Shown here: positions 1 to 60,644 of the stretch, piece after piece
Position numbering within the stretch: the first letter of the stretch is position 1
Layout of the letters: every line of letters starts with the position of its first letter
Assembly (NCBI GenBank): GCA_964473155.1
Contig: CAYYNT010000009.1
Coordinates: 17,121-81,120, forward strand
Reading direction: 5' to 3'
Source: an uncultured Gemmatimonadales bacterium
GTDB taxonomy: Bacteria > Gemmatimonadota > Glassbacteria > GWA2-58-10
Length of the DNA stretch: 64,000 bases
Made by a program: the position numbers and the translations under genes
The notes under the pieces: generated by a model
Seen by the model: the letters and a program-made list of their open reading frames with translations, nothing else
The model's database searches: none
Told to the model about the DNA's origin: nothing

Positions 1-107
1 CCCAGGACACGGGAGACAGTGTCGTGATCCACGGCGAAAAAACCCAGAGGGACCCGCTCGGTGGCGCGGTGCTCCAGGACGTTAATCACAGTTTCACGGC
101 TGTTCAT
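1..107 (-). CDS. Partial CDS (first ~35 codons): N-terminus of a uroporphyrinogen-decarboxylase (URO-D/MtaA-like) family protein; gene continues beyond the window start
   Basis: Minus-strand ATG at ~107 gives MNSRETVINVLEHRATERVPLGFFAVDHDTVSRVLG with no stop to position 1. The pattern ...ER...AL.....DRVP... resembles URO-D family N-termini. The start overlaps the last codons of the upstream endonuclease III-like gene in another frame. Confidence 0.3.
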   Translation of the reverse strand, partial: MNSRETVINVLEHRATERVPLGFFAVDHDTVSRVL

Positions 108-34300: not shown

Positions 34301-34312
34301 GAGGCGGCTGAC

Positions 34313-34957: not shown

Positions 34958-35014
34958 GATAGTGAAAACGCTACGGCCGGTCACACACCGGACAGAATAC
35001 TGGAAAGCTGAACC

Positions 35015-38010: not shown

Positions 38011-38019
38011 GGACGACAG

Positions 38020-38778
38020 ATGTTCAAGGTGCTGTTCGAAAGATTAAGCCAGGGACACCGGCGTTTCCCGTTCCTGAAAAAAACTCCGGTGCTGCCGGAG
38101 CGTTTCCGGGGCCTTCCGGCGCTTAATGCCGCTAAGGGTGAAGAATGCGGCGAAGCCCTCACCCAAGCCTGTCCGTACGGCGCCATTTCCGGCAAAGGGG
38201 AAACTCTTGCGATCGATCTGGGACGCTGCCTGTTCTGCGCGGATTGCAAGGCGGCCTGTCCCGGAGGAGCGGTTGAATTCAGCAACGATTACCGTCTGGC
38301 CGTGCGCCGGCGGGCAGACCTTGTGCTGCGCGATAATTGCCTTCATCTGGCCGAGGCGCTGGACAAAAAAGCCCGGAGCCTGTTCGGCCGCTCTCTGACA
38401 TTGAGACAGGTGAGCGCCGGAGGCTGCAACGCCTGCGAGGCGGATGTCAACGTGCTCAACACCCTGACTTACGATCTGGCCAGTTACGGCATACAGTTCG
38501 CCGCCTCACCCCGTCATGCGGATGGCCTCCTGGTGACTGGGCCGGTCACGGCCAATATGCGGCTGGCCCTGGAAAAAACCTGGCAGGCCGTGCCGGACCC
38601 GAAGATCGTGATCGCGGCCGGAGCCTGCGCCATCTCCGGCGGACCATACCGCGATCACCCGGAAACAGCGAACGGAGTCGATTCCGTATTGCCGGTCGAT
38701 CTTTACATCCCCGGCTGCCCGCCCCACCCCTGGACAATCCTGGACGGCCTTCTGCGCCTGCTGGGGCGGATACGCTGA
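38020..38778 (+). CDS. NuoB-like small subunit with N-terminal ferredoxin-like 4Fe-4S extension (EhrS-like)
   Basis: The N-terminus has CLFCADCKAACP (CxxCxxCxxxCP) plus a degenerate second motif. The C-terminal part has NuoB motifs: GGCNAC, FAASPRHADGLLVTGPVT, IAAGACAISGGPY and IPGCPP. That gives four Cys for a proximal cluster, but CxxC replaces the usual CC pair. Confidence 0.7.
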   Translation: MFKVLFERLSQGHRRFPFLKKTPVLPERFRGLPALNAAKGEECGEALTQACPYGAISGKGETLAIDLGRCLFCADCKAACPGGAVEFSNDYRLAVRRRADLVLRDNCLHLAEALDKKARSLFGRSLTLRQVSAGGCNACEADVNVLNTLTYDLASYGIQFAASPRHADGLLVTGPVTANMRLALEKTWQAVPDPKIVIAAGACAISGGPYRDHPETANGVDSVLPVDLYIPGCPPHPWTILDGLLRLLGRIR

Positions 38779-45400: not shown

Positions 45401-45690
45401 CCACCAATTAGAATTCGGCAGGCCACGGTCATTGCGCTCGATATAATTCCAGCCCAGGGACCGAAGTACAAAGCACAAAGGCTGACCATGACCGAACGGC
45501 CGTCAAATATCAGACCGGGGCCCATATTAAGCGGCCGAAGCATTCCTAACACCGCGCTCCCGCCGAATAAAAGACCCTGCAGTATGACTCCAGACAATGT
45601 GTTCCGCGGCCAGCGCTTTACGATGAAATTTGAAACTATGCTGAGAGCCACCAGCAATGCCAGGTTGAGCACCAAATCGAGATAAACCAT
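42463..45690 (-). CDS. Hybrid sensor kinase: N-terminal 5TMR-LYT membrane domain, multiple PAS domains, HisKA/HATPase_c and C-terminal receiver
   Basis: Five TM helices at the N-terminus, of the LytS-YhcK type. At least four PAS-like segments follow (repeated ...ITERK..E.E...). H-box VAHDFNNML, then N, G1 and G2 boxes. The terminal REC has VIMPEMNG. Confidence 0.8.
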
Positions 45691-46141: not shown

Positions 46142-48397
46142 TCAACTGCCTTGAATCTCAAGCAGTTTTTCCTCTATTCTACGGCGCCACTGGTCCATTT
46201 TTCCGTTGTCCTGGGCCGAATACCAGAAATCCGTCACCGTGCTGCTTCCGCGCAGCCCCATTGAATCGTGGATTTCCGCATACAGTTTCGAGAGGAAATC
46301 CCCGATGTCCACCCCCCTGGCCGTTGCCTCACGCTTGAGAGTCTCAAGCAGACGGCGCTCGTCCCAGGCCTCCGAGAGCCCCATCATATAAGGCGTGGGA
46401 ATTATATCGAAAGGTGTGTTCCAGACACAGATCCAGTTTTCGCCCTCGAGCGTGTCGAAACGGTTGCCCCAGTTGTAAGCCCAGACCAGGGAGCCCACGC
46501 TTCCGTTGGCAGCGAAATAATAACCGAACGTATAACGCGCCCGGCCTGGCAGGCCGGCATCTCCCGTGCCGCTGTATTCCCAGAACTCCACCCCGGCGTC
46601 CCTGACCTGGCCGGGCAGGACGGGGTTCTCGTGCGTCGCGTTAGTGCAGAAAACATCCAGATAAGGCAGAAAATCAATACCGCCTTTGTAATGGTGTATG
46701 TCACCGCTGATAATAAAGTCGCTGTTGCCTTCTTTGAGCAGGTTTCTCATATCTATGAAATGCGACTTTATAAATGTCAGCGTATCGGTATATGCGCGCA
46801 TCTGCTCCCAGCGCCTGGCGCTCTGGATCCACTTGGCTGGCTCATCGAACGGAGTGACATTGAGCTTTGGCCAGTTGTTCGCCAAAGCATGCTCGCGGAC
46901 CCGTCCCGCCCACTCCACCACCAGGGGCCTCAGCCTGCTGTTCACCGAATCAGGCTTCTCCCAGAGCAGCGCGTCCGCACCCTTCTGATCCAGCCCTAAC
47001 GCGGCCATGGCCAGGGTCTGTTCGAGCTTCATCGTGCGGGGGAAACCGTACGGATTTTCGCCGAGGAACCAGAATATGTAATTGATGTCATTGCCGCGGC
47101 AGGCCTTCATGAACAGATCGAACCCGCGCCAGTCGAACTCGAAACCGCCGTCCCCGGTCCCTTTCAGTTCAGGCCTCGCGCTGAAATACCAGGGGATGAC
47201 GCAGTTGTGATTGTAGCGGCCGAGGCGCTCGATCTCATGGTAAGGAAGCAGCCCGCGGGTGCAATTTCCGAGAGTAAGCCCCGCCTCGTTCATGGTCAGA
47301 AGCTTTATCGGCAGGATTTCCAGTTTCAGGGGCACTGTCACCGGATCCGCATTCGCCGCGCTTATCACGATCCGGGTGACGTACTCCCCGGCCCTGGCGC
47401 CCTCTGCACCGGCTGTGTTTATCTCGAGCCACACGGCATGGCTTCTGGATTGCGGCACATCGAACTTATAAGACGGCCAAAGCCGCTGTGGAAATGGTTT
47501 CACCGGCAGAATACTGTCGTTCGTCCGCACCAGAGCGTATTCCACCACCCGGACACCGCACAGAGCGACAACGCTCCCGTCCGCGGCCTTTATTTCGCCG
47601 ACAGTCACCGCTACCCCGCTCAAATCCTTTCCGTTCGCATATACACCTATCTGTGCCAGTTCAATCTCGTTAAGGCTCTGACGGACCCGGAGAGTGTCGG
47701 GGATCTCCCCCTGCTGAGGCGCGGCGATATTCACCAGGGGGTCCATCCAGCTCCGGGCGAACGGAACTATCGCGCTCCGCGACCACGCCTCCGGAATGAC
47801 AGGTTTCTGAGCGTACTCATAATACTTTTCCGGAACGGATTCACGGCGCTGGACCCTTTCCACCCAGGCGCGGGTCTCCGCATTGTACCTCTCCTCATCC
47901 CCCGGCTCGCTCTCGACCAGTCTGGCCGAACGCACGCTCAGTTCACCTTCGCGGCTCAGAAGGCGGAACCTGGCGGTCGAATCCGGTTCGCAGAGCGCCA
48001 GGAATCCACTCTCGCATGGTATCCTGACCGTTTTCCACTGATTGTCGTTCAGCCCGCCGAAACGGTGCAGTTCGCTGTAGCGCACGCTCACATCCAACTG
48101 GCTGAATACCTGGGCGATTATCGGCCGGGTGACATTGTCGAGGTATTCAACTTCCAGGTTGAAATGATAGCGCCCGGAGGGCCTGTAGCCCTCCCACCAC
48201 GCGGCAGCTTCAAGGGTAATCGATTTTCCCTTGTACATCTCGGCATACTCATCGCCTTCCGAACCATCTCCCGAAACGGAAGAAAGCTCGACCGGAAATA
48301 TTTTTCCATCGGCATTCCGGGAAGTCTTACCGCCACAGGAGGCATTCAGCAGAACGAGAAAAATCATAACACTTAGTGCGATAAACCTGCTGTTCAT
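46142..48397 (-). CDS. Large secreted lipoprotein of unknown function (possible glycoside-hydrolase-like TIM-barrel protein)
   Basis: Lipoprotein signal MNSRFIALSVMIFLVLLNASCGG (the ATG has a GGAGGG RBS). The 750-aa mature protein has no motif I can assign. Its aromatic/acidic-rich C-terminal half is reminiscent of carbohydrate-active enzymes. Confidence 0.5.
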   Translation of the reverse strand: MNSRFIALSVMIFLVLLNASCGGKTSRNADGKIFPVELSSVSGDGSEGDEYAEMYKGKSITLEAAAWWEGYRPSGRYHFNLEVEYLDNVTRPIIAQVFSQLDVSVRYSELHRFGGLNDNQWKTVRIPCESGFLALCEPDSTARFRLLSREGELSVRSARLVESEPGDEERYNAETRAWVERVQRRESVPEKYYEYAQKPVIPEAWSRSAIVPFARSWMDPLVNIAAPQQGEIPDTLRVRQSLNEIELAQIGVYANGKDLSGVAVTVGEIKAADGSVVALCGVRVVEYALVRTNDSILPVKPFPQRLWPSYKFDVPQSRSHAVWLEINTAGAEGARAGEYVTRIVISAANADPVTVPLKLEILPIKLLTMNEAGLTLGNCTRGLLPYHEIERLGRYNHNCVIPWYFSARPELKGTGDGGFEFDWRGFDLFMKACRGNDINYIFWFLGENPYGFPRTMKLEQTLAMAALGLDQKGADALLWEKPDSVNSRLRPLVVEWAGRVREHALANNWPKLNVTPFDEPAKWIQSARRWEQMRAYTDTLTFIKSHFIDMRNLLKEGNSDFIISGDIHHYKGGIDFLPYLDVFCTNATHENPVLPGQVRDAGVEFWEYSGTGDAGLPGRARYTFGYYFAANGSVGSLVWAYNWGNRFDTLEGENWICVWNTPFDIIPTPYMMGLSEAWDERRLLETLKREATARGVDIGDFLSKLYAEIHDSMGLRGSSTVTDFWYSAQDNGKMDQWRRRIEEKLLEIQGS

Positions 48398-48486
48398 ACA
48401 ACCCTCCAGGAAATATTCCGGTTCAAACGAGTTTCCCTCCGGCACGGAAGCAGGCGGGATAATATTTATCTGCCAGTCGGTTCAGT

Positions 48487-50406
48487 TCAGCGGCGCGGCC
48501 CCCAGACAGGAGTCTCGGCTCCGCGCTCCAGGGCGCCCAGGTCCGGAGCGCTTCCGGTGAAATCATCGTTCACGTTGGGCAGGACCACCCCGCGATCCAC
48601 CGCCGGGGCGCCCGCTCGCAACGAGAAATCATAATCCCGGCTGAAATACACGGCCATCGGCTTTTCCGGATCGGGCCGGGACACGTTCTCAAAGATGTCA
48701 TAATCCACTTCCATTCCATGGCTTTCCTGACCTGTGGCGGCGCGGAACTCCGCCAGCGTTGCAAAACGCTTGAACTCCTCCCGCCGCTCCAGCTCGTAGT
48801 CACGCAGAACTCCCGCGGCAGGAGCCTTCCAGAAAAACTGCGCCCCGCCCGCGCGGTTCGGCCTGTAACCGTTGTAATCCAGCGTGCTGTAGATGGTATT
48901 CGTGCAGAGACGGAACAACTCGCGGCCGGGCGCGTCCGTGCCAAGGAAAAGGTTGTTGCGGAAATGAGCGTTGCTGTAGCCCGCCGGGTTGCGGTTCTCG
49001 GCCACAATCGTATTGTGATACAGCAACAGGCCCGCGGGCTGGACCTTGAACTTGAAAGCCATGCCCCAGGGAACATTATAAAGGATATTGCGGATATAGT
49101 AGGCCGGGCCGCCGTAAACCGGCTGGGCGCTCAGGCCGCACTGGGCCGAGTTGAAGCAGCGGTTGCGCAGCACGCGTATATTGTGCACTCCGCCGTCCGC
49201 CTCGATAAAATCATCGGTCATCAGGTGGATGTCGTTGTTGTAGAAATCGATGGCCGTGTCGCGCAGCGACGGGTCAGGGTCCGGGCTGCCGTGGGTGCAG
49301 ACACAGATCGCGTCATGGAACCAGGCGATATGGTTGTGGCAGACCACGTGCCCCTGGCCATAGACTTTGACCGCGTAATAGCTCTTGAGCGGGCTTGCCC
49401 CGTAGGAGCCTGGATCGTACCAGCCGATCAGGCGGTTGCGGTCGTCCCGGCCGAGCATGACATTGTCCGAGATCAGGAAATCGCGCGATCCGGCAAACTG
49501 GGTCGTGACCGCTATCCCCACCTCCTCCATCCGGCAGTGCCGGACGGTCAGGCCGCTGCACCCGGCCACGTCCTTGAGGCCCGCGTAGAAAGCGATATCG
49601 CAGTTCACTATTGTCAGGTTTTCGAAGATATGGTAGTCCGCGGCCATGACATCGAACAGGCGGTAGCAGCCCGCGCCGTCGAAAATGACCTCACCGTCGC
49701 CCGCCGCGCGTATCACTATAGGCCGCTCGGGCGTGCCCTTGGCTGTCAGGACATACGCGCCGTGGAAATCCAGGCCCAGCGGATCGCTGTAGCTTAAGCG
49801 ATCGGCCCTGTAGCGCCCGGCATGCATCAGGATGACGTCGCCGGGGCGCACCTTGCGCTCGCTCACCACGGCCCAATCTCCGCCGCCGGCGCCCTGGTAG
49901 GCGGACATGAGTCCGGTGAACGACGGCTCCGTGCGCGGGCCTTCCCAGTCCGGGGGATAGACATGCAGCACTCGACCGCCCGCCGCGGCTTTCGGCTCAG
50001 CGCGGGTCCGGAGGCGCACGGTCTTTTCCGCCTCCCCTCGCACGCCGTCCGGGTCGGTCAGGCGCAGACGGCACTCATACTCTGCGCCCGGCTCCAGGTC
50101 GAACAGACTGCCCGCGAACATATCCGGGGCCGTGTAGTCGATAAAATCCTCTTCGGCGAACGTGCGCTCGTTGTCTATCCGCAACAGGGGCAATCCCTCG
50201 CGCCAGCCGTTCTCGCCAGCTTTGCGGTAATGAAGCGAAACCGCGCTGTTGCGGTTGTCATCCCCGGCGATAGCCCACTCGAAACCCAGGCAGATCAGTG
50301 TCGGACGCTCCAGCTTCAGCTCACCCGCGGTCACGCGGTCCTCAGCCGGAAGGATAACGCTTGATAGAAGAATGAGTATTGAAACGAGGGCCGGCGCTGA
50401 ATTCAT
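48487..50406 (-). CDS. Secreted right-handed parallel beta-helix repeat protein (pectate-lyase-fold; putative polysaccharide lyase/hydrolase)
   Basis: Signal peptide, then many short repeats with N/D/G/I/V periodicity (e.g. NLTIVNCDIAFYAG..., HNHIAWFHDAI..., YNNDIHLMTDDFIEADGG) typical of pectin-lyase-fold beta-helices. Confidence 0.6.
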   Translation of the reverse strand: MNSAPALVSILILLSSVILPAEDRVTAGELKLERPTLICLGFEWAIAGDDNRNSAVSLHYRKAGENGWREGLPLLRIDNERTFAEEDFIDYTAPDMFAGSLFDLEPGAEYECRLRLTDPDGVRGEAEKTVRLRTRAEPKAAAGGRVLHVYPPDWEGPRTEPSFTGLMSAYQGAGGGDWAVVSERKVRPGDVILMHAGRYRADRLSYSDPLGLDFHGAYVLTAKGTPERPIVIRAAGDGEVIFDGAGCYRLFDVMAADYHIFENLTIVNCDIAFYAGLKDVAGCSGLTVRHCRMEEVGIAVTTQFAGSRDFLISDNVMLGRDDRNRLIGWYDPGSYGASPLKSYYAVKVYGQGHVVCHNHIAWFHDAICVCTHGSPDPDPSLRDTAIDFYNNDIHLMTDDFIEADGGVHNIRVLRNRCFNSAQCGLSAQPVYGGPAYYIRNILYNVPWGMAFKFKVQPAGLLLYHNTIVAENRNPAGYSNAHFRNNLFLGTDAPGRELFRLCTNTIYSTLDYNGYRPNRAGGAQFFWKAPAAGVLRDYELERREEFKRFATLAEFRAATGQESHGMEVDYDIFENVSRPDPEKPMAVYFSRDYDFSLRAGAPAVDRGVVLPNVNDDFTGSAPDLGALERGAETPVWGPRR

Positions 50407-51025: not shown

Positions 51026-52057
51026 ATGCATAGAATAACGAGGATACTGCCGGCATTAGCCCTGGCCGGTCTCTGGGCCATGCCCTGCCTGGCCTGCGAT
51101 GTACCGGTGTTCCGTTATGCCCTGGAACGCTGGACCCCGGCGGTGTACGAGCTGAACGTTATCGCTCCTCAGGGCAATCCCGCGAACGATACTCCACCCG
51201 TCAACTCCCTGCAAAGCCTTCTGGACAGCGCAAACTGCGCTTTACATTACAGCGGCTCCGGCGCGTCCGTCAGCGGGGGCGTCATCCCGCGGATGGAACT
51301 CGCATATCGCGACTGGCAGGGGGAAAAAATCTTAATATGGTCCGGCCGGGCGTCGGCTGAAAATGTCGAAAAGCTTGTCGATTCTCCAGCCCGCAGGGAG
51401 ATAGCCGGGAAACTACTGGGCGGCGCGACAGCGGTCTGGGTGTTTCTCGAGTGCGAGGACAGGGCGAAAAACGAGGCCGCGCTGGGACGGCTGGAAACGG
51501 CCCTGGACCAGATCGAGCGGAGCCTGACTCTGCCGGAATCGGTGACACGCCTGCAAGAGTCCATGACAGGCAAGCTGCGGGTTGACTTCCCTGTCGTGAA
51601 AATCCAGGGTTCGAGCGAGGCGGAAAAAATCCTGGTCGACATGCTGATCCGCTCCGAGCCGGACCTGGAGTCCTACAGGACTGAGCCGATGGCATTTCCG
51701 GTATTCGGACGGGGGCGTGTGCTTTACGCTCTGGCGGGAGATGGCATCGACAGCGTGAATACCGCCGGGGCGTGCGTTTTCCTGGCCGGTCCATGCGCCT
51801 GCGAGATAAAAGAATCGAACCCGGGAATGGACCTGCTCATGCGGGCCGGATGGGCCTCGGGTATCGGGGAGAGCTGGGTCGACGCCTCGGAAAACGTGTC
51901 GTTGTCCAGCCTCGCCGCCCTGGCGGGAGGCAGGCCGGATGACAACTCCGGCGGGAAACTGTTTCATGGTGTCGTAATAACGCTGCTGACCGTGCTTATA
52001 CTCGTTGGAGCCGGGAGCGTAGTGCTCCTGAGAAAGATCAGGAGAAGGGACCGATGA
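51026..52057 (+). CDS. Exported protein of unknown function with signal peptide and C-terminal transmembrane anchor
   Basis: MHRITRILPALALAGLWAMPCLAC signal. A soluble ~280-aa region with several Cys follows. The C-terminus has a TM helix VVITLLTVLILVGAGSVVLL followed by RKIRRRDR. The stop overlaps the next start (ATGA). The track ORF begins further upstream at a TTG; I chose the first ATG before the signal peptide. Confidence 0.5.
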   Translation: MHRITRILPALALAGLWAMPCLACDVPVFRYALERWTPAVYELNVIAPQGNPANDTPPVNSLQSLLDSANCALHYSGSGASVSGGVIPRMELAYRDWQGEKILIWSGRASAENVEKLVDSPARREIAGKLLGGATAVWVFLECEDRAKNEAALGRLETALDQIERSLTLPESVTRLQESMTGKLRVDFPVVKIQGSSEAEKILVDMLIRSEPDLESYRTEPMAFPVFGRGRVLYALAGDGIDSVNTAGACVFLAGPCACEIKESNPGMDLLMRAGWASGIGESWVDASENVSLSSLAALAGGRPDDNSGGKLFHGVVITLLTVLILVGAGSVVLLRKIRRRDR

Positions 52058-53334
52058 ACCTGAGGCAGGTTGTGTTCCGGGAGATAATGCACCGCAAGAC
52101 GGGCTTTATCCTGGGGGCCTTATCCGTGGCAGCGGCGACCGGCGTTCTGGTCTGTGTCATGACCCTGCTCGAGGCCCATGCCGAGGCGTCCAGCCGGATG
52201 ATGGCGGAAAAGGAAGCCGCTACAGCCAGGGAAATGGCATTGATGCAGGACGACTACCGCAAGATAATGAAGACCCTGGGGTTCAACCTCCTTATACTCC
52301 CCGAAAGCCAGAGCCTGGAGCAGTACTACGCCACCGGGTATGTCACGGAAACGATGCCCGAGGACTACGCCGGGCGTCTTGCCGCGGCCGGGCTGCTGAC
52401 GGTGCGCCATGTCCTGCCCAGCGTGGAGCGCAGGATCGAGTGGCCCGAGATGGGCGGGTCCACGGTCATTCTCTCAGGAACAAAGGGTGAGATACTGTCA
52501 GCGGAAGGTTTCAACGGTGAGTCGATGCAGATGCCGGTGGCAGAGGGGGATCTTGTAGCCGGGTATATCGTGGCGAAAAATCTCGGTCTGAGTGTGGGTG
52601 AGACTGTGACGCTACGCGGCGAGAAGTTCCGGGTCAGTGAGATAAACACCGAGAAGGGAACGCGGGACGACATTACAGTCTGGATCGAACTGGGACGGGC
52701 GCAGAGGATGCTTGGCCTCGAGGGACGGATCAACGCCATCCTGGCCCTGAAATGCCTCTGCGAGGGCAACGAGTTGCCGAAGGTCCGCAAGGACGTGATC
52801 CGGATACTGCCGGGGACCCAGGTTATCGAGGTCGACTCCAAGGTCATCACCCGCGCCGAGGCCAGGGACAAGGCCGCGGCAGTGGCAAAACAGACGCTGG
52901 AGGAAGAGAGCGCCAGCCTGGCCCGTTTGCGTAAAAGTATCGAGGACCTTGCCGCCTGGCTCGTCCCTCTGTCGATTCTCGGCGCCGCAGTCTGGATAGG
53001 CCTTCTGGCCCTGGGCAATGTGCGGCAGAGACGGGCCGAGATCGGGATATTCCAGGCCCTCGGTCTTGATTCGGGGCGCATAATCGCTATTTTCCTGGCC
53101 CGGGCCGCTCTTATAGGCCTGACGGGCGCGGTGGCGGGCTACGCCCTGGGCATGGCCACGGCTGGAGTATACTCGGCAAAGTTCGAGGGTGGCCTTTCCG
53201 GTGCGCTGACTTTCAACGCCCTGACGTTTCTCGTTGTCATCCTTGCCGCCCCGGCGCTGGCCATAGTATCAAGCTGGCTGCCCGCGCTCGTTGCGGCGGG
53301 ACAGGACCCGGCTCTCGTACTTAGGGAGGATTGA
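52054..53334 (+). CDS. ABC transporter permease, FtsX/MacB/LolC-E type (N-terminal TM, large periplasmic domain, three C-terminal TM helices)
   Basis: The topology and the conserved C-terminal FtsX-domain pattern (...RRAEIGIFQALGLDSGRIIAIFLARAALIGLTGAVAGYALG...) fit the family. An AGGAGA RBS is present. Confidence 0.75.
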   Translation: MNLRQVVFREIMHRKTGFILGALSVAAATGVLVCVMTLLEAHAEASSRMMAEKEAATAREMALMQDDYRKIMKTLGFNLLILPESQSLEQYYATGYVTETMPEDYAGRLAAAGLLTVRHVLPSVERRIEWPEMGGSTVILSGTKGEILSAEGFNGESMQMPVAEGDLVAGYIVAKNLGLSVGETVTLRGEKFRVSEINTEKGTRDDITVWIELGRAQRMLGLEGRINAILALKCLCEGNELPKVRKDVIRILPGTQVIEVDSKVITRAEARDKAAAVAKQTLEEESASLARLRKSIEDLAAWLVPLSILGAAVWIGLLALGNVRQRRAEIGIFQALGLDSGRIIAIFLARAALIGLTGAVAGYALGMATAGVYSAKFEGGLSGALTFNALTFLVVILAAPALAIVSSWLPALVAAGQDPALVLRED

Positions 53335-53341
53335 GGCGCGG

Positions 53342-54007
53342 ATGTTGAACCTTGATTCGATAACGAGAGTCTACCGCCGTAAGAACGGGAATCCGGTCGT
53401 GGCGCTCGACAGCGTCTCGCTTTCGGTCCGGCCCGGCGAGTTCGTGGTCCTCCAGGGCCCCAGCGGAAGCGGCAAGACCACCCTGCTCCTGACAGCCGGG
53501 GGCCTTCTGCCCCCGGCCTCCGGCGCGGTAAAGCTGGAGGAGCGCGACATCTATACCCTGCCCGCGGGCGAACTCGCCAGGGTGCGGGCGAAAAAAATCG
53601 GGTTCGTTTTCCAGCAGTTCCATCTGATACCCTACCTGAATGTCCTCGAAAACGTGCTTGCGCCCTCGCTGGCCTGTCCGGACCCTGGTGCGCGGGAGCG
53701 CGCCTTTTCGCTCCTCGAAGAGCTGGGTCTCGACCGGAGGGCCGGCCACTTCCCCTCCGAGCTGAGCACCGGGGAGCGTCAGCGGACAGCCCTTGCAAGG
53801 GCGCTGCTCAACCAGCCGCCGCTCATACTGGCGGATGAACCCACCGGCAACCTGGACCGCGACAATTCACGCATAGTAACCGGTCACCTCTGCCGGTTCG
53901 TGTCCTCGGGCGGCGCGGTGCTGATGGTGACGCACGGGCCGGACAGCCTCTCCTTCGCTCACCGGCGGGTCGACATCATGGAGGGCAAGATTGTCTCCGC
54001 GGATTGA
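53342..54007 (+). CDS. ABC transporter ATP-binding protein (LolD/MacB-type)
   Basis: Walker A GPSGSGKTTL, signature LSTGERQRTALARAL, Walker B ILADEPTGNLD. A GGGAGGA RBS precedes the ATG at 53342. Confidence 0.8.
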   Translation: MLNLDSITRVYRRKNGNPVVALDSVSLSVRPGEFVVLQGPSGSGKTTLLLTAGGLLPPASGAVKLEERDIYTLPAGELARVRAKKIGFVFQQFHLIPYLNVLENVLAPSLACPDPGARERAFSLLEELGLDRRAGHFPSELSTGERQRTALARALLNQPPLILADEPTGNLDRDNSRIVTGHLCRFVSSGGAVLMVTHGPDSLSFAHRRVDIMEGKIVSAD

Positions 54008-54020
54008 AAATACCTTACTC

Positions 54021-57000
54021 ATGACGGCAGAAAAAATCGTGTCGAGACTCGCGCCGTTTATCGTCATGCTGAGCCTCGGACCGGCAAGCTCTCTTTTTCC
54101 ATCAGACTGGCCCATGTGGCGCTTCGGGCCTGAACGCGGGGCCTGCGCTCCGGACAGCCTGGCGACTGAACTGTCGCCCCTGTGGGCGGTGGATTACGGC
54201 AGGCGGGAGCCGGTCTGGGACGATCCGCTGAACCGTGACCTGATGCCCTACGACCGGGTGTTCGAGCCGGTGGTGGCCGATGGTAGGATGTTTGTCGGGT
54301 TCAACGATCGGGACAAGCTGGTGGCCCTCGACACGGATTCAGGCAAAGAACTCTGGTCGTTCTACGCCGAGGGACCGGTGCGGTTTCCGGCGGCCGCCTG
54401 GGGCGGCAACGTGTATTTCGTGTCGGATGACGGGTGCCTCTACTGCGTGCGCGCCGCAGACGGAGCGCTGGTCTGGAGGTTCCGCGGGGGGCCATCGCAG
54501 CGCAGGGTGCTCGGGAACAGACGCCTGATCTCCACCTGGCCGGCCCGCGGCGGACCGGTGATCCGTGATGGGCGGGTATATTTCACCGCCGGCATCTGGC
54601 CGTTCATGGGAGTCTTCATATACGCACTGGATGCCCGGAGCGGAAAGGTTGCCTGGGAGAACGACTGGACCGGCAGCCAGTTCATACTCCAGCCGCACAA
54701 CTCCCCCGCTTTCGCCGGGATTGCGCCTCAGGGCGCCCTGGTCGCGGCGGGCGACGGTATAATAGCGCCCGGTGGACGTTCTGTCCCGGCCCTGTTCGCG
54801 CGTGAAGACGGCAGCCAGCGATACTTCCATCTCGCCGCACAGAACAAGACCGGAGGCTCTTTTGCCTGCGCCGCCAGCCACGTCTTTTTCAACCATTACC
54901 GCGACCAGGTCTGCTCGATGTACGACCTCGCGACCGGTAAGGCCCTTATCGAGCGGATAGGCAGTTCCCCGGTGATATCCGGGGACCTTATCCTGTTCGG
55001 TGGAAAGACTGTCCGGGCTTTCGATTCTCGTGAGCTGCAGGAAGTCAGCCGCTGGTTCCTGACTGGAAATTTCCTGGAGCGCTGGCTCGCAGGCCTCGAT
55101 GCGGACAAAATCAAACCCGCATTCCTCGGTTCGGCCGTGAAATGGTGGGTCCGCAGGAAATCCCGTCTGTGGCGCGGCGCAGTTCTCTGGGAAGCAAAGG
55201 TAGATGCCGGCCGGGACCTCATACGCGCCGGTGATATCCTCTATGCCGCATCCGGTGACGGCATCACGGCGCTGAGGCTGTCATCCGCACGCAAATCTCC
55301 GCCCGCCGTGCTCTGGCATAAGAGGGTCGAGGGCGGCGTCGAAAGGTTACTTGCCGCCGGAGGGAAGCTGTTCGCGGTCACCCTGGACGGGCGGATCATG
55401 GCTTTCGGCCCGGAGAGTGACGGGGATAAAGCCCCTCCCGCGCGTCCCGTGGAAGCGGCCGAAACCGGACCCGGATCGCGCGAGTCCGCCGGGATCATCA
55501 GCCGCACCGGGGCGCGAGAGGGCTACGGTCTGGTGTTCGGACTAAAGGACTATGATTTGCTGCTTGGCCTGGCCCGCGGTTCCAACCTGCAAATTGTCGG
55601 CATTGACCCGGACAGCGCACGGGTGGACTCGATCCGGCGGAGACTGGACCATGAAGGCCTGTACGGGAAGCGGATTGCGGTGGTACGGGGGACCCAGGGC
55701 GGTTTCGACTGCCCGCCATACCTGGCCAGCCTGATCGTTATTAACGGCCCGCTCGAACCGGGTTTCAGCCGGCTCCTCGAATCTCTTCGCCCATACGGAG
55801 GAAAAGCCTGGCTGAGAAACCCGGGGACAGGCCGCCGCGTAATTCAGGATTCTGTCAACGCCGCGGGCGTCGAGGCGCTGCGCCTTGAAAAAGGAACGGC
55901 GCCGGTTGTTGTCGTCCGGAACGGCCCGCTGCCTGGAGCCGGGAGCTGGACCCATCAGTATGGCGATATCGCCAACACGGTCAAATCGAACGACACGCGC
56001 GTGAAGCTGCCGCTTGGCCTGCTCTGGTTCGGCGGAAGCTCCAACCTGGATGTCCTTCCCCGCCACGCGCACGGTCCGCCGGAGCAGGTTGCCGGGGGCC
56101 GGCTTTTTATCGAGGGCATTGACTGCATGAGCGCGCGGGATGTCTACACCGGGCGCGTGCTCTGGAAAACCAGGATCGAGGGCCTGGACAACTTCAATGT
56201 CTATTACGACGAGACTTACAAGGACGCCCCGACCAGCACGGAATACAACCAGATTCATATCCCGGGGGCGAATGTCCGGGGCGCTAATTTCGTGGCCACC
56301 ACGGACCGCCTCTATATTGCCGCCGGACCGGTCTGCCGGGTGCTCGACACGACGACTGGAGAGGTGACCGGGACTATCGGACTGCCGGAAGGTTCGGGCG
56401 GCTGGGGCTACATCGGGGTCTGTGGCGATTACCTTATCGCCGGGGGCGGCCTGGTCGATTTCTCGTCCCGGATGCCGGGAGGCTCTGAAAAGCCAAGCGA
56501 GAGAGACAAGCCTTTCCTTGATTTCAACCGCTCGGCCAGTTCCAGCCTGACAGTCATGAACCGCCATACCGGACGGCCGCTGTGGACCCGCGAGGCGCGT
56601 TACGGCTTCATCCACAATTCGATCGTGGTGCACGACGGGAGACTTTACTGCCTGGACAAGCTGCCGCCTTACATCGAGGGCCTGATCGCCCGTCGCGGCG
56701 GCAGGCCGGTGGAGGGTTCGGGCATGCTCTGCCTGGACCTGACATCCGGGAACATGATCTGGAACAAACAGGAGGGAGTTTTCGGCGCCTGGTTGAGCTA
56801 TTCCGCGGAACACGATATCCTTCTGCAGGCCACCCGTCCCTCCAGCGACATGGTGCGGGGCGAGGACGGCAGGCGCATGGCCGCGTATGGCGGCAGGGAC
56901 GGCCGGCTGCTGTGGGACAGGAAGATCGAATACGGGTCTGTGCCGATTCTCCGTCGTGACAGAATTATCACAGCCGGAAAGATGATCGACCTTCTGAGCG

Positions 57001-57860
57001 GTGAGGAACTGGTCCGGAAACACCCGCTGACCGGCGAGGAGGTACCGTTTTCCTGGAAGCGCAATTATGGCTGCAACTACCCGATCGCCTGCGAAAACCT
57101 TCTGACCTTCCGTTCCGCCGCGGCCGGTTATTTCGACCTGACCAACCTGGGCGGGACAGGCAACCTGGGAGGATTCAAATCCGGCTGCACCTCGAACCTG
57201 GTGGCGGCGGACGGGGTGCTGAACGCCCCGGACTACACCCGGACCTGCGCGTGCAGCTACCAGAACCAGACCTCCCTGGCCCTGCTCTACGACAGGGATG
57301 TCGAGGTCTGGACATTCAACGACCTGGATTCGGTCTCTGCGCCGGTCCGCAGGGTGGGAATCAACCTGGGCGCTCCGGGGGACCGGGTTTCCGATGAGGG
57401 AACCCTCTGGCTGGACTACCCCAGCCGGGGCGGACCCTCTCCGGACATACCGGTGTCGGTCGAGGGAGACAGTCTGCGCTGGTTCTGCCACCATTCGTCG
57501 CGCATACGGGAGGGAGAAATGCGCTGGGTGGCGGCCTCCGGCGTGGAGGGCGCCAGAAAGCTGACTCTGAATCTGGGGCACGGGGATGCCGCCCCCCGGA
57601 CTTTCAAGGTGCGCCTGTATTTTTCGGATTGTGACGCTCACTCAGGCAGCCATGTATTCAGCCTCGGCATCCAGGGGAAAAGAGTTGTTGAAAGGCTCGA
57701 TCTCGTTGCTGAATGCCGCCGGGGAGAGACATATCTGATCAGGGAATTCGACGGTGTAGAGGTGCGGGACACCCTTACCGTTGAGCTGATCCCGGAGCCG
57801 GATATAAAAAACAACCGGACCGTGATCTGCGGGATAGAAGCGATCGAGCAGGGCTGGTGA
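54021..57860 (+). CDS. 1,279-aa secreted multidomain protein: BamB/PQQ-like beta-propeller repeats flanking a degenerate class-I methyltransferase-fold domain, with a C-terminal malectin-like carbohydrate-binding domain
   Basis: Signal-like N-terminus MTAEKIVSRLAPFIVMLSLGPASS. Repeated ..DG.VY....DG.L.A.DA.TG...W.. propeller blades occur at the N-terminus and again after residue ~700. The central GYGLVFGLKDYDLLLGLARGSNLQIVGIDPD..RVDSIRRRL...RIAVVRG...SLIVINGP matches the MTase beta1-alpha-beta2 order but lacks the GxGxG loop. The C-terminal FKVRLYFSDCD...HVFSLGIQGKRVVERLDLV...TYLIREFDGVEV.DTLTVELI matches a malectin-like domain. Confidence 0.6.
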   Translation: MTAEKIVSRLAPFIVMLSLGPASSLFPSDWPMWRFGPERGACAPDSLATELSPLWAVDYGRREPVWDDPLNRDLMPYDRVFEPVVADGRMFVGFNDRDKLVALDTDSGKELWSFYAEGPVRFPAAAWGGNVYFVSDDGCLYCVRAADGALVWRFRGGPSQRRVLGNRRLISTWPARGGPVIRDGRVYFTAGIWPFMGVFIYALDARSGKVAWENDWTGSQFILQPHNSPAFAGIAPQGALVAAGDGIIAPGGRSVPALFAREDGSQRYFHLAAQNKTGGSFACAASHVFFNHYRDQVCSMYDLATGKALIERIGSSPVISGDLILFGGKTVRAFDSRELQEVSRWFLTGNFLERWLAGLDADKIKPAFLGSAVKWWVRRKSRLWRGAVLWEAKVDAGRDLIRAGDILYAASGDGITALRLSSARKSPPAVLWHKRVEGGVERLLAAGGKLFAVTLDGRIMAFGPESDGDKAPPARPVEAAETGPGSRESAGIISRTGAREGYGLVFGLKDYDLLLGLARGSNLQIVGIDPDSARVDSIRRRLDHEGLYGKRIAVVRGTQGGFDCPPYLASLIVINGPLEPGFSRLLESLRPYGGKAWLRNPGTGRRVIQDSVNAAGVEALRLEKGTAPVVVVRNGPLPGAGSWTHQYGDIANTVKSNDTRVKLPLGLLWFGGSSNLDVLPRHAHGPPEQVAGGRLFIEGIDCMSARDVYTGRVLWKTRIEGLDNFNVYYDETYKDAPTSTEYNQIHIPGANVRGANFVATTDRLYIAAGPVCRVLDTTTGEVTGTIGLPEGSGGWGYIGVCGDYLIAGGGLVDFSSRMPGGSEKPSERDKPFLDFNRSASSSLTVMNRHTGRPLWTREARYGFIHNSIVVHDGRLYCLDKLPPYIEGLIARRGGRPVEGSGMLCLDLTSGNMIWNKQEGVFGAWLSYSAEHDILLQATRPSSDMVRGEDGRRMAAYGGRDGRLLWDRKIEYGSVPILRRDRIITAGKMIDLLSGEELVRKHPLTGEEVPFSWKRNYGCNYPIACENLLTFRSAAAGYFDLTNLGGTGNLGGFKSGCTSNLVAADGVLNAPDYTRTCACSYQNQTSLALLYDRDVEVWTFNDLDSVSAPVRRVGINLGAPGDRVSDEGTLWLDYPSRGGPSPDIPVSVEGDSLRWFCHHSSRIREGEMRWVAASGVEGARKLTLNLGHGDAAPRTFKVRLYFSDCDAHSGSHVFSLGIQGKRVVERLDLVAECRRGETYLIREFDGVEVRDTLTVELIPEPDIKNNRTVICGIEAIEQGW

Positions 57861-57926: not shown

Positions 57927-60644
57927 ATGCCTGAGTTTTTCTACGAGAAGTATCGAACGGCGATTAAGGGAGTTCTGAGAACCGGCATGTCACAATCTCT
58001 GATTTGTTTTGTATTTTTTCAATTCTCGCTCTGCCTCTCTTTCTCCGTCCAGCCACTTGCCGCGCAGAAAACCAACGATCCGGAACAGGAGGCCAGGGAT
58101 TTTATCAACGTGGCCGAAACCCGGCTTGCACCGGTCTACCCGGCGCTGGCCCTGCATATAGTCGAAAGGTTCGGCCTGGCGGGTGAGAAAGGTCTCGGGA
58201 TCGACCTGGGAAGCGGTCCGGGGCACCTGATTATCGAACTGGCGCGGCGCACGGAGAGGATGGAGTGGATAAACGCGGACATCAATCCCCATTACTTCAC
58301 ATATTTCCTGACAAAGGCCCGGCAGGCCGGGCTGGCCGGGCGGGTGCAAGCCGTGGAAGCCGATGCGCAGGCCCTTCCCTTTGATGACGATGTGGCCGAT
58401 ATCGTTGTCTCCCGCGGTTCGTTTCAGTTCTGGGAAGATAAGGAAAAAGCCTTCTCCGAAATCTATCGTGTCCTCAAACCCGGCGGAAAAGCGTTTATCG
58501 GGCGCGGCCTGCCGGAGAATCTGCCTCCGGAGACTGCAAGCAAGGTGCGTGAACGGGCAGGCAACGGTCCGGAATACGACGTGGCGGAAACTGCAATCCT
58601 GCTGGAAAAAATTATGCGCTCCCTGAAAATAGCCGATTACCGGGTGGAAAGACCCCGGCCGGCGGGCTCCGAGGGTGTAAGCTACGGCGTGTGGATCGAG
58701 TTTTCCAAACCTGCCGCGAAAACACAGGCAAGCGAGAAAAGAACCTCCTACTACGACCTGGATACGCTGGTGGTCATCGGCTCCGTCCTCCGCGACCCGG
58801 TATCCGAGCCGCGAACTGAGCCGTTGAGCCTCGAACCCGCCGCCACCGTGGTCAACCAGGCGGAAATCGCCCGTTCCGGGGCCAAGACCCTGATCGAGGC
58901 CATGGAGTACGTTCCCGGCGCCTGGATCGAGAACCGGGGACGGAAAGTGAAACAGTTCTTTTCGATCCGCGGCCAGAAATATCCCTACCCGGACTATGCC
59001 ATTGACGGCGCCTGGCAGCGTGAGTTTCTGGAGCTGCCTTATTTCTTTCCCGCTGAAAATGTCGAGCGCATCGAAATCATGCGCTCGAGCGCGGCGCTCT
59101 TTACCGGGCTTTCAGGCTTGACCGGCGTGATCAATATCGTCCCGCGCGAATACCGCCAACGGGAAACCGCTTTCCAGGGTGAATACGGGTCTTTCGGAAC
59201 CTACAGGCTCAATCTCAGCCACGGCGGCGTGGTGAAAAACCTGTCCTACGCCCTGGACCTGGGGTTCCCTGGCACGGATGGGCCGAAAGGCAAGTACGCG
59301 GCCGAGTCGTTCACCAATTTCAGAGGCAGCCTCTACTGGCGTCCGAATGAAAAATGGGAAGTCAACGCCCATCTGATGCATCTCAACGGCAGCCGTCAGA
59401 TGGCCCGGGCCGTGGCGCCCGCGACTTTGGACCTGCGCACCGCCTCCGAGAAATTCGATCCTTTCCGAGCCACCCTGGCCACGGTGAAAGCCCTTTACAA
59501 ACCCAACGCGAGAGTTTCCTCGGAGCTAATCGCCAGCTATTCAGTCCGTAACAACATGTATATATCGCAAACCCCGTCCTCGACCACCTCCAACCGTGAG
59601 TACGATTATGAGTGGGGGGCCAACTTCACCCAGTCGGTGACGCCTTTTCGAAGCAATATCCTTCGTTTCGGGAGCCTCTACAACCATTGGGCGGCCCCCA
59701 ACGGAAAGCGTTTCTACGTGGGCAAGCGCTGTGACCTGGAAACCTTCTCCTGGGTGGCCGGGGACGAGCAGAGCATCGGGCCGCTGACCCTGAATCTCGG
59801 TCTGCGCTGGGCTCGCACTTATATCAACAACTACGGCGCATTCAATATCAACGAAAGCCCCAAGGGCCTGCAGAACGTGACCCCGATCAGAAACGAGTGG
59901 GAACCGGCTCAGATAACCACCGCCCTGGGAGCCTCATGGGCATTCTCACCCTCGGTCTCGGCTCATTTCAACCTGGCCGCGGGCAAGATAAAGCCCGCTC
60001 CGGGCAACTTGAACACCGATATGCAGGAACCAGAAAAAGAGAAAAGGCTGAAGATCGACCTCGGTCTCATAACCAGGCGGGAAAACATAGGGCAGCTTTC
60101 ACTGGTCTGGTTTATCACCCGTCAGAACGATGCCCTGGTGCTGAGCGGCAAGACTGTAAACCTCGATGGCAAAGTGCTGGAGACCTTTCTGAACCGCGAC
60201 CAGCGCCAGACCGGTGTCGAGATCGACGCCCGGAGCGTCCCTCTGCGGGGCTGCCTCCAGCTTTTCGCCAATTTCGTGGCCATCAGCCCACGGGCAGAGG
60301 TGGAGGGGCGGATGGTCCGTGACCGGGAAACTCCCAGGATCATTTCATCCGGCGGACTTTTCATCAACAGGGCCGGGTATGACCTGAACCTGTTTCTCAA
60401 AACCGTTTCTTCTTACGAGAGCACCCGTTTCGTGGCAGGCACTGCCGGTCAGCCGCTTCTGCCGCAGCCCCTTGGCGCGTACCAGACGCTTAACCTGACT
60501 CTCGGGCGCAATTTCGGCTCCAGGCCGTTCAACAGGATTTACCTGGAAGTGACCAATATGGCCGATGACAGGTATTCCACGGTGGCGGGCTATCCGGATT
60601 ACGGCAGGAGGCTGACAGCAGGCTGGCGCATCGTTTATAAATGA
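57927..60644 (+). CDS. Fusion protein: N-terminal class-I SAM-dependent methyltransferase domain (UbiE/Methyltransf_11-like) joined to a TonB-dependent-receptor-like plug plus beta-barrel
   Basis: The ATG at 57927 has an AAGAGGA RBS. A hydrophobic segment LICFVFFQFSLCLSFSVQPLAAQ follows. Canonical MTase motifs are present: I GIDLGSGPGHL, post-I INADIN, II FDDDVADIVVSRGSFQFW, III LKPGGKAFI. Next comes a TonB-box/plug-like region (DTLVVIGS ... VPGAWIENRG..V.QFFSIRGQ ... ERIEIMRSSAALFTGLSGLTGVINIV) and a ~550-aa barrel-like region. The last residues are ...RIVYK, not the usual terminal F/W. A single uninterrupted ORF. Confidence 0.65.
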   Translation: MPEFFYEKYRTAIKGVLRTGMSQSLICFVFFQFSLCLSFSVQPLAAQKTNDPEQEARDFINVAETRLAPVYPALALHIVERFGLAGEKGLGIDLGSGPGHLIIELARRTERMEWINADINPHYFTYFLTKARQAGLAGRVQAVEADAQALPFDDDVADIVVSRGSFQFWEDKEKAFSEIYRVLKPGGKAFIGRGLPENLPPETASKVRERAGNGPEYDVAETAILLEKIMRSLKIADYRVERPRPAGSEGVSYGVWIEFSKPAAKTQASEKRTSYYDLDTLVVIGSVLRDPVSEPRTEPLSLEPAATVVNQAEIARSGAKTLIEAMEYVPGAWIENRGRKVKQFFSIRGQKYPYPDYAIDGAWQREFLELPYFFPAENVERIEIMRSSAALFTGLSGLTGVINIVPREYRQRETAFQGEYGSFGTYRLNLSHGGVVKNLSYALDLGFPGTDGPKGKYAAESFTNFRGSLYWRPNEKWEVNAHLMHLNGSRQMARAVAPATLDLRTASEKFDPFRATLATVKALYKPNARVSSELIASYSVRNNMYISQTPSSTTSNREYDYEWGANFTQSVTPFRSNILRFGSLYNHWAAPNGKRFYVGKRCDLETFSWVAGDEQSIGPLTLNLGLRWARTYINNYGAFNINESPKGLQNVTPIRNEWEPAQITTALGASWAFSPSVSAHFNLAAGKIKPAPGNLNTDMQEPEKEKRLKIDLGLITRRENIGQLSLVWFITRQNDALVLSGKTVNLDGKVLETFLNRDQRQTGVEIDARSVPLRGCLQLFANFVAISPRAEVEGRMVRDRETPRIISSGGLFINRAGYDLNLFLKTVSSYESTRFVAGTAGQPLLPQPLGAYQTLNLTLGRNFGSRPFNRIYLEVTNMADDRYSTVAGYPDYGRRLTAGWRIVYK

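Follow-up and report, generated by a model that had tools for sequence, protein, structure and literature searches.

A family of large exported proteins with a degenerate methyltransferase-like module between two beta-propellers and a recurrent gene neighbourhood

The window (the whole 64,000-nucleotide stretch of DNA analyzed here) encodes a 1279-residue multidomain protein in which a minimal class-I methyltransferase (MTase) fold with degenerate SAM motifs lies between two eight-bladed PQQ/BamB-like propellers, followed by a malectin-type C-terminus. The explanation that we favor, with rather more confidence than doubt, is that this protein is Sec-exported and probably periplasmic, that the two propellers form its constrained core, that the module between them is a dead MTase fold put to another use, and that the protein works together with the products of its neighboring genes. 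The four folds are each familiar. The family, defined in the present analysis as the A-type propeller-MTase-propeller-malectin family, is very large and uncharacterized, and no description of its architecture was found in the searchable literature. The features of the locus are as follows.

51026-52057, plus strand: orphan partner protein of 343 aa, with a signal peptide, the mature N-terminus C-D-V-P-V-F-R-Y-A-L-E-R-W, a conserved GPC-x-C-E-V/I-K motif and a C-terminal TM anchor
52054-53334, plus strand: MacB/LolCE-type permease with an FtsX domain and a MacB_PCD periplasmic domain
53342-54007, plus strand: ABC ATPase, LolD/MacB/FtsE-like
54021-57860, plus strand: gene for the 1279-aa exported A-type protein, from ORF and translation
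54021-54104, plus strand: signal-peptide-like N-terminus without lipobox Cys, residues 1 to ~28, read from the sequence (MTAEKIVSRLAPFIVMLSLGPASSLFPS) and not with a dedicated cleavage-site tool
54105-55415, plus strand: propeller 1, PQQ/BamB-like, residues 29-465 (Pfam PQQ_2, 6.7e-33; BamB/PQQ PDB chains match residues 51-232)
55029-55184, plus strand: variable insertion of ~50 aa inside propeller 1, residues 337-388, found in 47/120 homologues
55416-55505, plus strand: little-conserved Pro/Ala/Glu-rich linker, residues 466-495
55506-55940, plus strand: minimal class-I MTase fold with degenerate SAM motifs, residues 496-640
55539-55556, plus strand: motif-I loop G507-L-K-D-Y-D512 in place of GxGxG, from register alignment and family motif counts
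55941-57305, plus strand: propeller 2, residues 641-1095, from an AF2 model with Foldseek and from invariant columns
57318-57857, plus strand: malectin-type (CBM57-like) C-terminal beta-sandwich, residues 1100-1279, from family Pfam matches, profile matches and beta-rich secondary structure in the model
57927-60644, plus strand: TonB-dependent receptor with a signal peptide and, ahead of the TonB box, an intact class-I MTase domain, followed by plug and barrel

The ORF of the 1279-aa protein runs from 53991 to 57860, and its first ATG lies at 54021. The N-terminus carries positive charge followed by a hydrophobic stretch, and a hydrophobic, signal-peptide-like start was found in 112/118 family members, in agreement with the earlier proposal that this large protein is exported. 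Residues 1-41 contain no Cys, and hence no lipobox of the BamB lipoprotein type, and the protein lacks a twin-arginine motif; export was read as Sec. The protein is thus probably periplasmic, and our best guess at its function is a glycan-binding or glycan-processing machine in that compartment.

Full-length homologues at ~50% identity form more than 2,473 clusters. The 1279-aa protein was assigned to the A-type family by ~50% identity across 97-100% of its length to more than 100 proteins, with which it is collinear through the WTHQYG, PRHGHGPPEQ and C..C..CxC motifs. The system occurs in Planctomycetota, Hydrogenedentota, Omnitrophota, KSB1, Latescibacterota, Gemmatimonadota and their relatives. 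The full-length proteins within the top 150 of 1034 representative hits carry the MTase-like domain at about the same position, and they gave no sign of an independently existing domain. Some A-type members contain an extra CBM9-like domain (PF06452). Mean pairwise identity is 0.60 in both propellers, 0.42 in the MTase-like domain and 0.22 in the linker, so that the central domain is less conserved than the propellers and far more conserved than the linker.

According to the sequence-only reading, the center of the protein is a class-I MTase fold whose SAM loop has degenerated, and this was borne out. The quoted peptides (VFGLKDYDLLLGLAR, LQIVGIDPD, RVDSIRRRL, RIAVVRG and SLIVINGP) all lie at residues 505-577, and the domain has a Rossmann-like alpha/beta fold with a seven-stranded sheet, rather than the non-Rossmann fold that had been named as grounds for rejection. 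The closest known folds are class-I SAM-dependent MTases (MMP1179/3dlc; Pfam Methyltransf_25/11; the TrmI/Trm61 m1A58 MTases). A Pfam scan of the central 212 aa gave zero matches even at E<=10, and Methyltransf_25 was matched by 5/39 homologues. GLKDY pairs in register with GSGPG of the MTase encoded downstream in the window, and the stretch F-G-L-K-D-Y-D (506-512), set against D-L-G-S-G-P-G of that neighbor, does not contain (D/E)xGxGxG. At the end of beta2, the acidic ribose ligand is kept as D529 (D/E in 93% of representatives), and the motif-III acid after beta3, the adenine ligand, is replaced by T558 (D/E in 65%). Unlike the known enzymes, the domain is a bare core of ~145 residues with no substrate lid, and it is set between two propellers of an exported protein. 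These substitutions suggest that canonical SAM binding has been lost in the 1279-aa protein.

The family counts show that the degenerate loop is not peculiar to this protein. GxGxG is intact in 54/120, 15/78 and 60/142 members of three family samples (45%, 19% and 42%), and all three SAM hallmarks occur together in 25%, 10% and 28%, respectively. Loss of G509 is independent of loss of the motif-III acid (OR 0.88, p=0.73). Conservation in the domain instead peaks at family-specific residues (G501, R539, R551, PPY565-567, RPYGG590-594 and R633), and the 1279-aa protein has all of them. Since the SAM hallmarks are eroded and these residues are all kept, the domain looks repurposed and not decaying, and purifying selection for another, family-specific surface is the account that we find somewhat better than even. 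The proposed degeneration of the SAM loop stands; what the family conserves is a different residue set. Trm6 (Trm6-Trm61) and METTL14 (METTL3-METTL14) are catalytically dead MTase-fold partners, and the central domain resembles them in having an MTase fold whose cofactor site is degenerate and which would be kept for a structural or substrate-presenting role. They are, however, cytoplasmic or nuclear subunits that heterodimerize with an active paralogue, whereas the dead fold described here is an internal domain of a probably periplasmic protein, with a candidate active partner in one clade only. It may connect propeller 2 rigidly or give it a docking platform, or it could perhaps form a site, lined by Arg and Tyr, for some other ligand. 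A cofactor site that erodes while a new conserved surface persists would make the family a clean natural example of pseudo-enzyme repurposing outside the cytoplasm.

When scanned alone, the C-terminus of the 1279-aa protein gave a sub-threshold match to PF11721 (E=0.006, 17 bits against a 23-bit cutoff). Full-length homologues matched PF11721 in 36/39 cases (best 7e-15) and Malectin_like in 22/39, and a profile of the C-terminal 180 aa matched the malectin-like domains of the plant CrRLK1L kinases ANXUR1 and FERONIA (2.6e-9) and malectin 2jwp (1.8e-5). By sequence comparison, the beta-sandwich is thus homologous to the Malectin/CBM57 family, as had been suggested, and is not the non-malectin end that would have spoken against the earlier reading, but it begins near residue 1100 and not at 1180. 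The homology is consistent with glycan binding, and the C-terminus may tether the protein to a glycan.

The five genes for the partner, permease, ATPase, A-type protein and receptor lie tightly on one strand, with a 4-nt overlap followed by gaps of 7, 13 and 66 nt. Neighborhoods were counted in 84 non-duplicate loci and in a subset of 33 with >=3.5 kb on both sides. The partner gene adjoins the A-type gene in 38/84 loci (18/33 well-flanked ones); the permease is co-located in 33/84 and the ATPase in 29/84 (the ABC pair in 13/33); and an orthologue of the TonB receptor barrel is nearby in 13/84 (a TonB-dependent receptor in 8/33). None of the partner, ABC pair and receptor was found near the A-type gene in 14/33 well-flanked loci. 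This synteny suggests functional coupling of the 1279-aa protein to its neighbors. The partner has no match in Pfam, NCBIfam or PDB; its family, of at least 1,609 clusters, shares an invariant CxC, and a further Cys near the predicted cleavage site of the signal peptide is almost invariant. The permease (PF02687, 7e-15; PF12704, 4e-06) and the ATPase (ABC_tran, 6e-31) are of MacB/LolCDE type, an assignment to type only and not to orthologue, since both score below the Lol/MacB equivalog cutoffs. Type VII (MacB/LolCDE/FtsEX) ABC mechanotransducers work on periplasmic partners. The adjacent pair shares with them the FtsX and MacB_PCD domains and a LolD/MacB/FtsE-like ATPase; unlike in the known systems, the locus has no membrane-fusion protein or known client, and the partner is an orphan Cys-motif protein. 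The A-type protein is likely to be co-transcribed, and may act, with this membrane-anchored periplasmic protein and with the mechanotransmitting transporter, and a specific TonB-dependent receptor would join them in many lineages. The recurrent module offers a concrete, testable entry into an abundant system.

A second group, the B-type paralogues, consists of proteins of ~1000 aa, mainly from Verrucomicrobiota and Planctomycetota, with a signal peptide, propeller, MTase and propeller. They share with the A-type proteins 31-34% identity, the domain order and the WTH, RHGxG and C..C..CxC motifs, but they have no malectin domain, and a canonical motif I is more frequent among them (58% GxGxG; most match Pfam MTase models). 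The partner/ABC module is linked in three B-type loci only, and three sampled B-type contexts contained sulfatase, GH127 or AXE1 esterase genes. Since most B-type members keep (D/E)xGxGxG and yet have signal peptides, the ancestral exported domain may have been, or may still be, a working SAM binder. The broadest reading, which we consider speculative and rather unlikely, is that the A-type protein, Cys-motif partner, MacB-type transporter and dedicated TonB receptor form an unrecognized, widespread envelope-spanning machine in which MTase folds work outside the cytoplasm. Periplasmic SAM-dependent chemistry, for example on a glycan or metal(loid), would be performed or sensed by exported ancestors of propeller-MTase-propeller order, whose canonical state persists in many B-type paralogues and in the receptor-fused domain, and the 1279-aa protein would be a repurposed derivative.

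It is also conceivable that the central domain has kept a role in ligand sensing or catalysis. It would then bind SAM, SAH or a similar nucleoside in a non-canonical manner and so regulate or catalyze chemistry on a substrate that propeller 2 holds. The largely canonical motifs of the B-type paralogues fit this idea, as do the 28% of representatives that retain all three hallmarks, the preserved beta2-end acid and the conservation of the MTase-like and propeller unit even in a shorter relative (L064). G507 and G511 are moreover conserved in 98% and 83% of the family, so that many members may bind a nucleotide, and the 1279-aa protein may do so weakly and non-canonically. However, the two glycines expected to line the SAM site are Lys and Tyr in this protein, Thr stands at motif III, the hallmarks were lost independently across the family, the core lacks a lid, and the protein is exported by Sec, with no twin-arginine motif, to a compartment for which we know of no source of SAM. 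We judge this explanation to be improbable for the 1279-aa protein.

That the next gene carries an intact MTase domain was correct; the domain is fused to the TonB-dependent receptor, and its position N-terminal to the TonB box implies that it is periplasmic, as the 1279-aa protein probably is. Orthologues at 50-60% identity strictly conserve its SAM motifs (GIDLGxGPG, NADINP, ADA and VLKPGG). These facts, together with the receptor's signal peptide, the adjacency of the two genes in the window and in close relatives, and the presence of TrmI/Trm61 among the structural neighbors of the central domain, would suit an enzyme/pseudo-enzyme pair, in which the dead fold docks on the receptor-fused MTase, as in the Trm6 and METTL14 complexes, and presents substrate to it or activates it in the periplasm. 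As a family feature, such pairing was contradicted by the counts: 9/84 loci (4/33 of the well-flanked ones) have an MTase domain close by, all of them in the wider clade of the 1279-aa protein, and orthologous receptors elsewhere have a CarboxypepD_reg-like N-domain or none, whereas the MTase-like insert is universal in A-type proteins. A-type proteins with an intact GxGxG (L006, L015 and L016) also adjoin the MTase, so that the suggested co-occurrence check showed no complementarity between the loop state and the downstream domain, and the missing periplasmic source of SAM weighs here as well. We therefore regard the pair as a poor candidate. A separate question, prompted by the apparently intact receptor-fused MTase, is whether SAM-dependent chemistry takes place in the periplasm.

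The most conserved motifs of the family are found in propeller 2, namely WTHQYG, PRHGHGPPEQ (nt 56058-56087) and C1018/C1056/C1076-x-C1078 (CxC loop, nt 57237-57269); H645, H682, H684 and H746 are likewise invariant. A truncated AF2 model of propeller 2 and the C-terminal beta-sandwich reached a pLDDT of 84.9, with tetrathionate hydrolase, BamB and PQQ dehydrogenases as top PDB matches, and within this otherwise confident model the pLDDT was lowest in PRHGHGPPEQ and TRTCxCSYQNQ, the two loops with the strongest conservation. By analogy with N2O reductase and its NosDFY/NosL/NosA machinery, the His and Cys residues might form a metal or sulfur center, which the partner and ABC transporter would assemble, with the TonB receptor as importer of the metal and the MTase fold as a bystander scaffold. 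Tetrathionate hydrolase as the first-ranking match, the Cys motifs of the partner and the fact that MacB-type transporters are mechanotransducers and not importers would accord with such a metallo-enzyme. On the other hand, no metal-site motif was matched, the proteins have no sequence similarity to Nos proteins, the low pLDDT may just reflect the domains missing from the truncated model, the Cys residues could form disulfides, and the B-type paralogues keep the His/Cys motifs without partner or ABC genes nearby. We consider this possibility, too, to be unlikely.

A role as a BamB-like accessory factor in outer-membrane protein assembly is suggested by the Pfam PQQ_2 description ('BamB'), by structural matches to BamB of E~1e-14 and by the JGI name 'outer membrane protein assembly factor BamB', but it can be dismissed almost entirely, and membership in the BamB family is effectively refuted, since the NCBIfam scores are far below the cutoffs (TIGR03300, 42.4 bits against 285; NF008351, 36.2 against 423), the lipobox is lacking, and the A-type protein is three times as large as BamB, having a second propeller and additional domains. 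The score for a PQQ-dependent dehydrogenase was likewise too low (TIGR03075, 30.5 bits against 480), and the protein stays under all curated equivalog cutoffs. Both propellers share the fold and repeat motifs of the eight-bladed PF13360 group, and the resemblance is as close to the dehydrogenases and tetrathionate hydrolase (7cqy) as to BamB, at only ~11-13% identity. Thousands of such proteins are named only 'PQQ-binding-like repeat protein' or 'BamB' in databases, labels that are misleading for A-type proteins.

The long open reading frame at 53991-57860 (+) has its first ATG at 54021 and encodes from there a protein of 1279 residues. Since homologues were found in more than 2,473 protein clusters, of which the best 120 listed span 86–100% of its length (mostly at about 50% identity), the gene is real. 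An antisense open reading frame within it (55542-57641, 699 residues) was rejected as a high-GC artefact, because the forward frame has thousands of full-length homologues. The nearest genome match is an uncultured Gemmatimonadales MAG (86% identity). The named members belong to Gemmatimonadota, Glassbacteria, KSB1, Latescibacterota, Planctomycetota, Omnitrophota, Hydrogenedentota, Acidobacteriota and other groups, and their database labels are all ‘PQQ-binding-like beta-propeller repeat protein’ or ‘BamB’ only; a cluster look-up for cultured hosts gave only MAGs with generic names. Scanning genome contigs with the single protein sequence as query gave 6 loci, and scanning metagenomes with the family alignment as query gave the 80 loci on which the neighbourhood statistics are based (individual loci carry L numbers below). 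The layout of the protein around its central methyltransferase (MTase) fold is as follows.

Start of the protein (+): signal-peptide-like N-terminus, MTAEKIVSRLAPFIVMLSLG..., with no lipobox; a similar start is present in 112 of 118 homologues.
Residues ~29-465 (+): propeller 1, PQQ/BamB-type (PQQ_2 E=6.7e-33; PDB BamB/PQQ chains match residues 51-232).
Residues 337-388, window positions 55029-55184 (+): variable insertion of about 50 residues in propeller 1, found in 47 of 120 homologues; Trp/Arg/Lys-rich and poorly conserved.
Residues 466-495 (+): poorly conserved linker between propeller 1 and the MTase fold.
Residues 641-1095 (+): propeller 2, eight-bladed; it most resembles tetrathionate hydrolase, BamB and PQQ dehydrogenases, to which it is 10-13% identical.
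Residues ~1100-1279 (+): C-terminal beta-sandwich, malectin-type by sequence profiles.

The sequence-only reading had described a secreted protein in which a degenerate MTase fold lies between BamB-like propellers and is followed by a malectin C-terminus, and all of these elements were recovered; neither a non-Rossmann centre nor a non-malectin C-terminus was found. The likeness of both propellers to BamB is one of fold type; membership of the BamB and PQQ-dehydrogenase families was rejected with scores under the curated cutoffs. The protein would be periplasmic. The C-terminal segment alone matched Malectin at E=0.006, slightly under the Pfam threshold; when 39 full-length homologues were scanned with Pfam, 36 matched Malectin and 22 Malectin_like, and the segment's profile matched the ANXUR1/FERONIA malectin-like domains (2.6e-9) and malectin itself (1.8e-5). 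Foldseek of the 640-residue C-terminal model returned propeller matches only and no malectin fold; the malectin call comes from the sequence profiles, which place the C-terminus by homology in the malectin/CBM57 fold family. The predicted malectin domain may thus bind glycans.

The peptides quoted in the sequence-only reading all map to residues 505-577, within the central fold. Here the loop after beta1 is G507-L-K-D-Y-D (G-x-G-D-G in many relatives), and in a pairwise alignment GLKDY lies opposite GSGPG of the MTase domain carried by the downstream receptor. The Asp after beta3, in motif III, is replaced by Thr558, and the acid ending beta2 is retained (D529). Of four sequence hallmarks of an active class-I MTase that were examined, the protein failed two, and Pfam gave no match for the isolated central domain. 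The degenerate loop is not peculiar to this protein: GxGxG was intact in 54 of the 120 closest homologues, 15 of 78 more diverse metagenomic loci and 60 of 142 representatives of 50%-identity clusters, and all three SAM hallmarks occurred together in 25%, 10% and 28% of these samples, respectively. Losses of G509 and of the motif-III acid were statistically independent (OR 0.88, p=0.73, phylogeny uncorrected), and G509 showed a modest association with the beta2 acid (OR 9.7, p=0.018, likewise uncorrected for phylogeny).

Other columns of the MTase domain are conserved across the family (G501, R539, G549, R551, P565-P-Y567, R590-P-Y-G-G594, R633 and G635), and the window protein retains every one of them. 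Mean pairwise identity was 0.42 in the MTase domain, 0.60 in the propellers and 0.22 in the linker. In a search of 1.84 billion representatives, those of the best 150 hits that were full-length carried the domain at the same place inside the protein. We read the central domain as a repurposed pseudo-enzyme, in which selection acts on the fold and on a new surface rich in Arg and Tyr, and not on the canonical SAM site. It would no longer bind SAM and, coupled to propeller 2, would serve as a rigid platform or provide a site for another ligand. The nearest functional concept is provided by Trm6 and METTL14, which are dead MTase-fold subunits; unlike in these, the dead fold here lies inside an exported protein, as one of its domains. 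The searchable literature on the propeller-MTase-propeller-malectin architecture and its motifs yielded nothing relevant.

The most conserved loops of propeller 2 are PRHGHGPPEQ (residues 680-689, 56058-56087) and TRTCACSYQNQ (residues 1073-1083, 57237-57269), the latter with an invariant CxC in the family form TRTCxCSYQNQ. In an AF2 model that is confident elsewhere, both loops score lowest, and they may form either an interface between domains or a site for a cofactor or metal. The second possibility leaves room for a minority reading by analogy with Nos, according to which the protein would be a metallo-enzyme and its neighbours a maturation system; we regard this as less probable than a repurposed pseudo-enzyme domain.

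Paralogues of about 1000 residues (B-type) adjoin the module in three loci, at L011:3-2078 (-), L015:2-2683 (+) and L063:15252-18251 (+). Their domain order is that of the A-type protein studied here (signal peptide, propeller, MTase, propeller) with no malectin domain, the WTH, RHGxG and C..C..CxC motifs are common to both types, and motif I of the three paralogues is canonical (LDLGCGEG, LDIGCGDG or VDLGAGRG). Verrucomicrobiota and Planctomycetota supply most of the B-type family, which comprises at least 2,220 clusters. The majority of its members match Pfam MTase models, GxGxG is kept in 58%, and 109 of 120 have signal-like N-termini. Three sampled B-type contexts contained sulfatase, DUF1501/PSCyt, GH127 and AXE1 esterase genes in varying combinations, and none of the partner or ABC genes described below. 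A shorter relative, L064:14335-15990 (+), consists only of a signal peptide, a degenerate MTase-like domain, the WTH motif and a propeller. These three layouts identify the MTase fold plus the following propeller as a conserved evolutionary unit, and the short relative suggests that this unit is ancestral. In the ancestor, the exported MTase-type domain probably carried a canonical SAM site.

The next gene, 57927-60644 (+), encodes a signal peptide followed by an MTase domain whose SAM motifs are intact, and then a TonB box (DTLVVIG), a plug and a barrel. The intact MTase noted earlier is thus fused to a TonB-dependent receptor and, as it lies behind the signal peptide and ahead of the TonB box, is predicted to be periplasmic. 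Orthologues at 50-60% identity strictly preserve its SAM motifs, and receptor orthologues of other lineages (barrels 40-50% identical) have a CarboxypepD_reg-like N-domain or none. An apparent clustering of the receptor with the A-type protein was rejected as single-linkage chaining via the MTase domain of a paralogue; tracing this chain led to the B-type family. The suggested enzyme/pseudo-enzyme pair was not supported as a feature of the family. Co-occurrence was seen in a minority of loci: an MTase domain was found near the A-type gene in 9 of 84 non-duplicate loci, in all of which the A-type protein is at least 47% identical to that of the window, and in 4 of the 33 loci flanked by 3.5 kb or more on each side. 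No complementarity between loop state and a neighbouring MTase was seen across loci, and A-type proteins with intact GxGxG also adjoin the receptor-type MTase. At most, such pairing would be an elaboration specific to one clade. Nothing relevant was found in the searchable literature on periplasmic or receptor-fused MTases.

The sequence-only reading was correct but incomplete; the more valuable outcome is a large uncharacterised superfamily together with its conserved gene module. The commonest neighbour is an orphan partner, 51026-52057 (+). It has a signal peptide, after which the mature protein begins with C-D-V-P-V-F-R-Y-A-L-E-R-W (Cys, then DVPVFRYALERW); a conserved G-P-C-x-C-E-V/I-K motif contains an invariant CxC, and a TM anchor lies at the C-terminus. 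Its homologues form at least 1,609 clusters, all ‘hypothetical’; no Pfam, NCBIfam or PDB match was obtained (the PDB profile search was empty even at E<=10), and the searchable literature held nothing on the family. Next in frequency come a permease of the MacB/LolCE type, with FtsX and MacB_PCD domains, and its ATPase.

Neighbours of the A-type gene in the well-flanked loci (33 of 84 non-duplicate loci, with at least 3.5 kb either side of the gene)
Orphan partner: 18 of 33
FtsX-type permease: 13 of 33
ABC ATPase: 13 of 33
TonB-dependent receptor orthologue: 8 of 33

In the window these five genes (partner, permease, ATPase, A-type gene and receptor) lie on one strand and close together, overlapping by 4 nt at one junction and separated by 7, 13 and 66 nt at the others, consistent with an operon. 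The partner and the MacB-type mechanotransducer would service or energise the A-type protein, and the receptor would supply or remove substrate across the outer membrane. Some loci also contain GH2 or GH42 genes, sulfatases and Gfo/Idh/MocA oxidoreductases, which is weak evidence for a glycan context since such families are abundant in these phyla.

The following features were observed elsewhere in the window.

46142-48445 (-) and 48487-50406 (-): open reading frames of 767 and 639 residues, divergent from the module, with no Pfam match; the second is syntenic in the nearest relative (L001:1-1851).
42463-45690 (-): hybrid sensor kinase (5TMR-LYT, several PAS domains, HisKA/HATPase, receiver), in the region of a GC dip to 0.48 at 44-46 kb; homologues recur in four further loci of the A-type gene (L013, L042, L051 and L059).
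31401-38778 (+): AT skew strongly negative, at -0.30 and -0.24 within 32-36 kb, over the membrane subunits of an Mrp/complex-I-like (hydrogenase-4-type) operon with Proton_antipo_M, NADHdh, Oxidored_q2, 49-kDa and 20-kDa subunits; the skew is due to T-rich codons in the membrane-protein genes.
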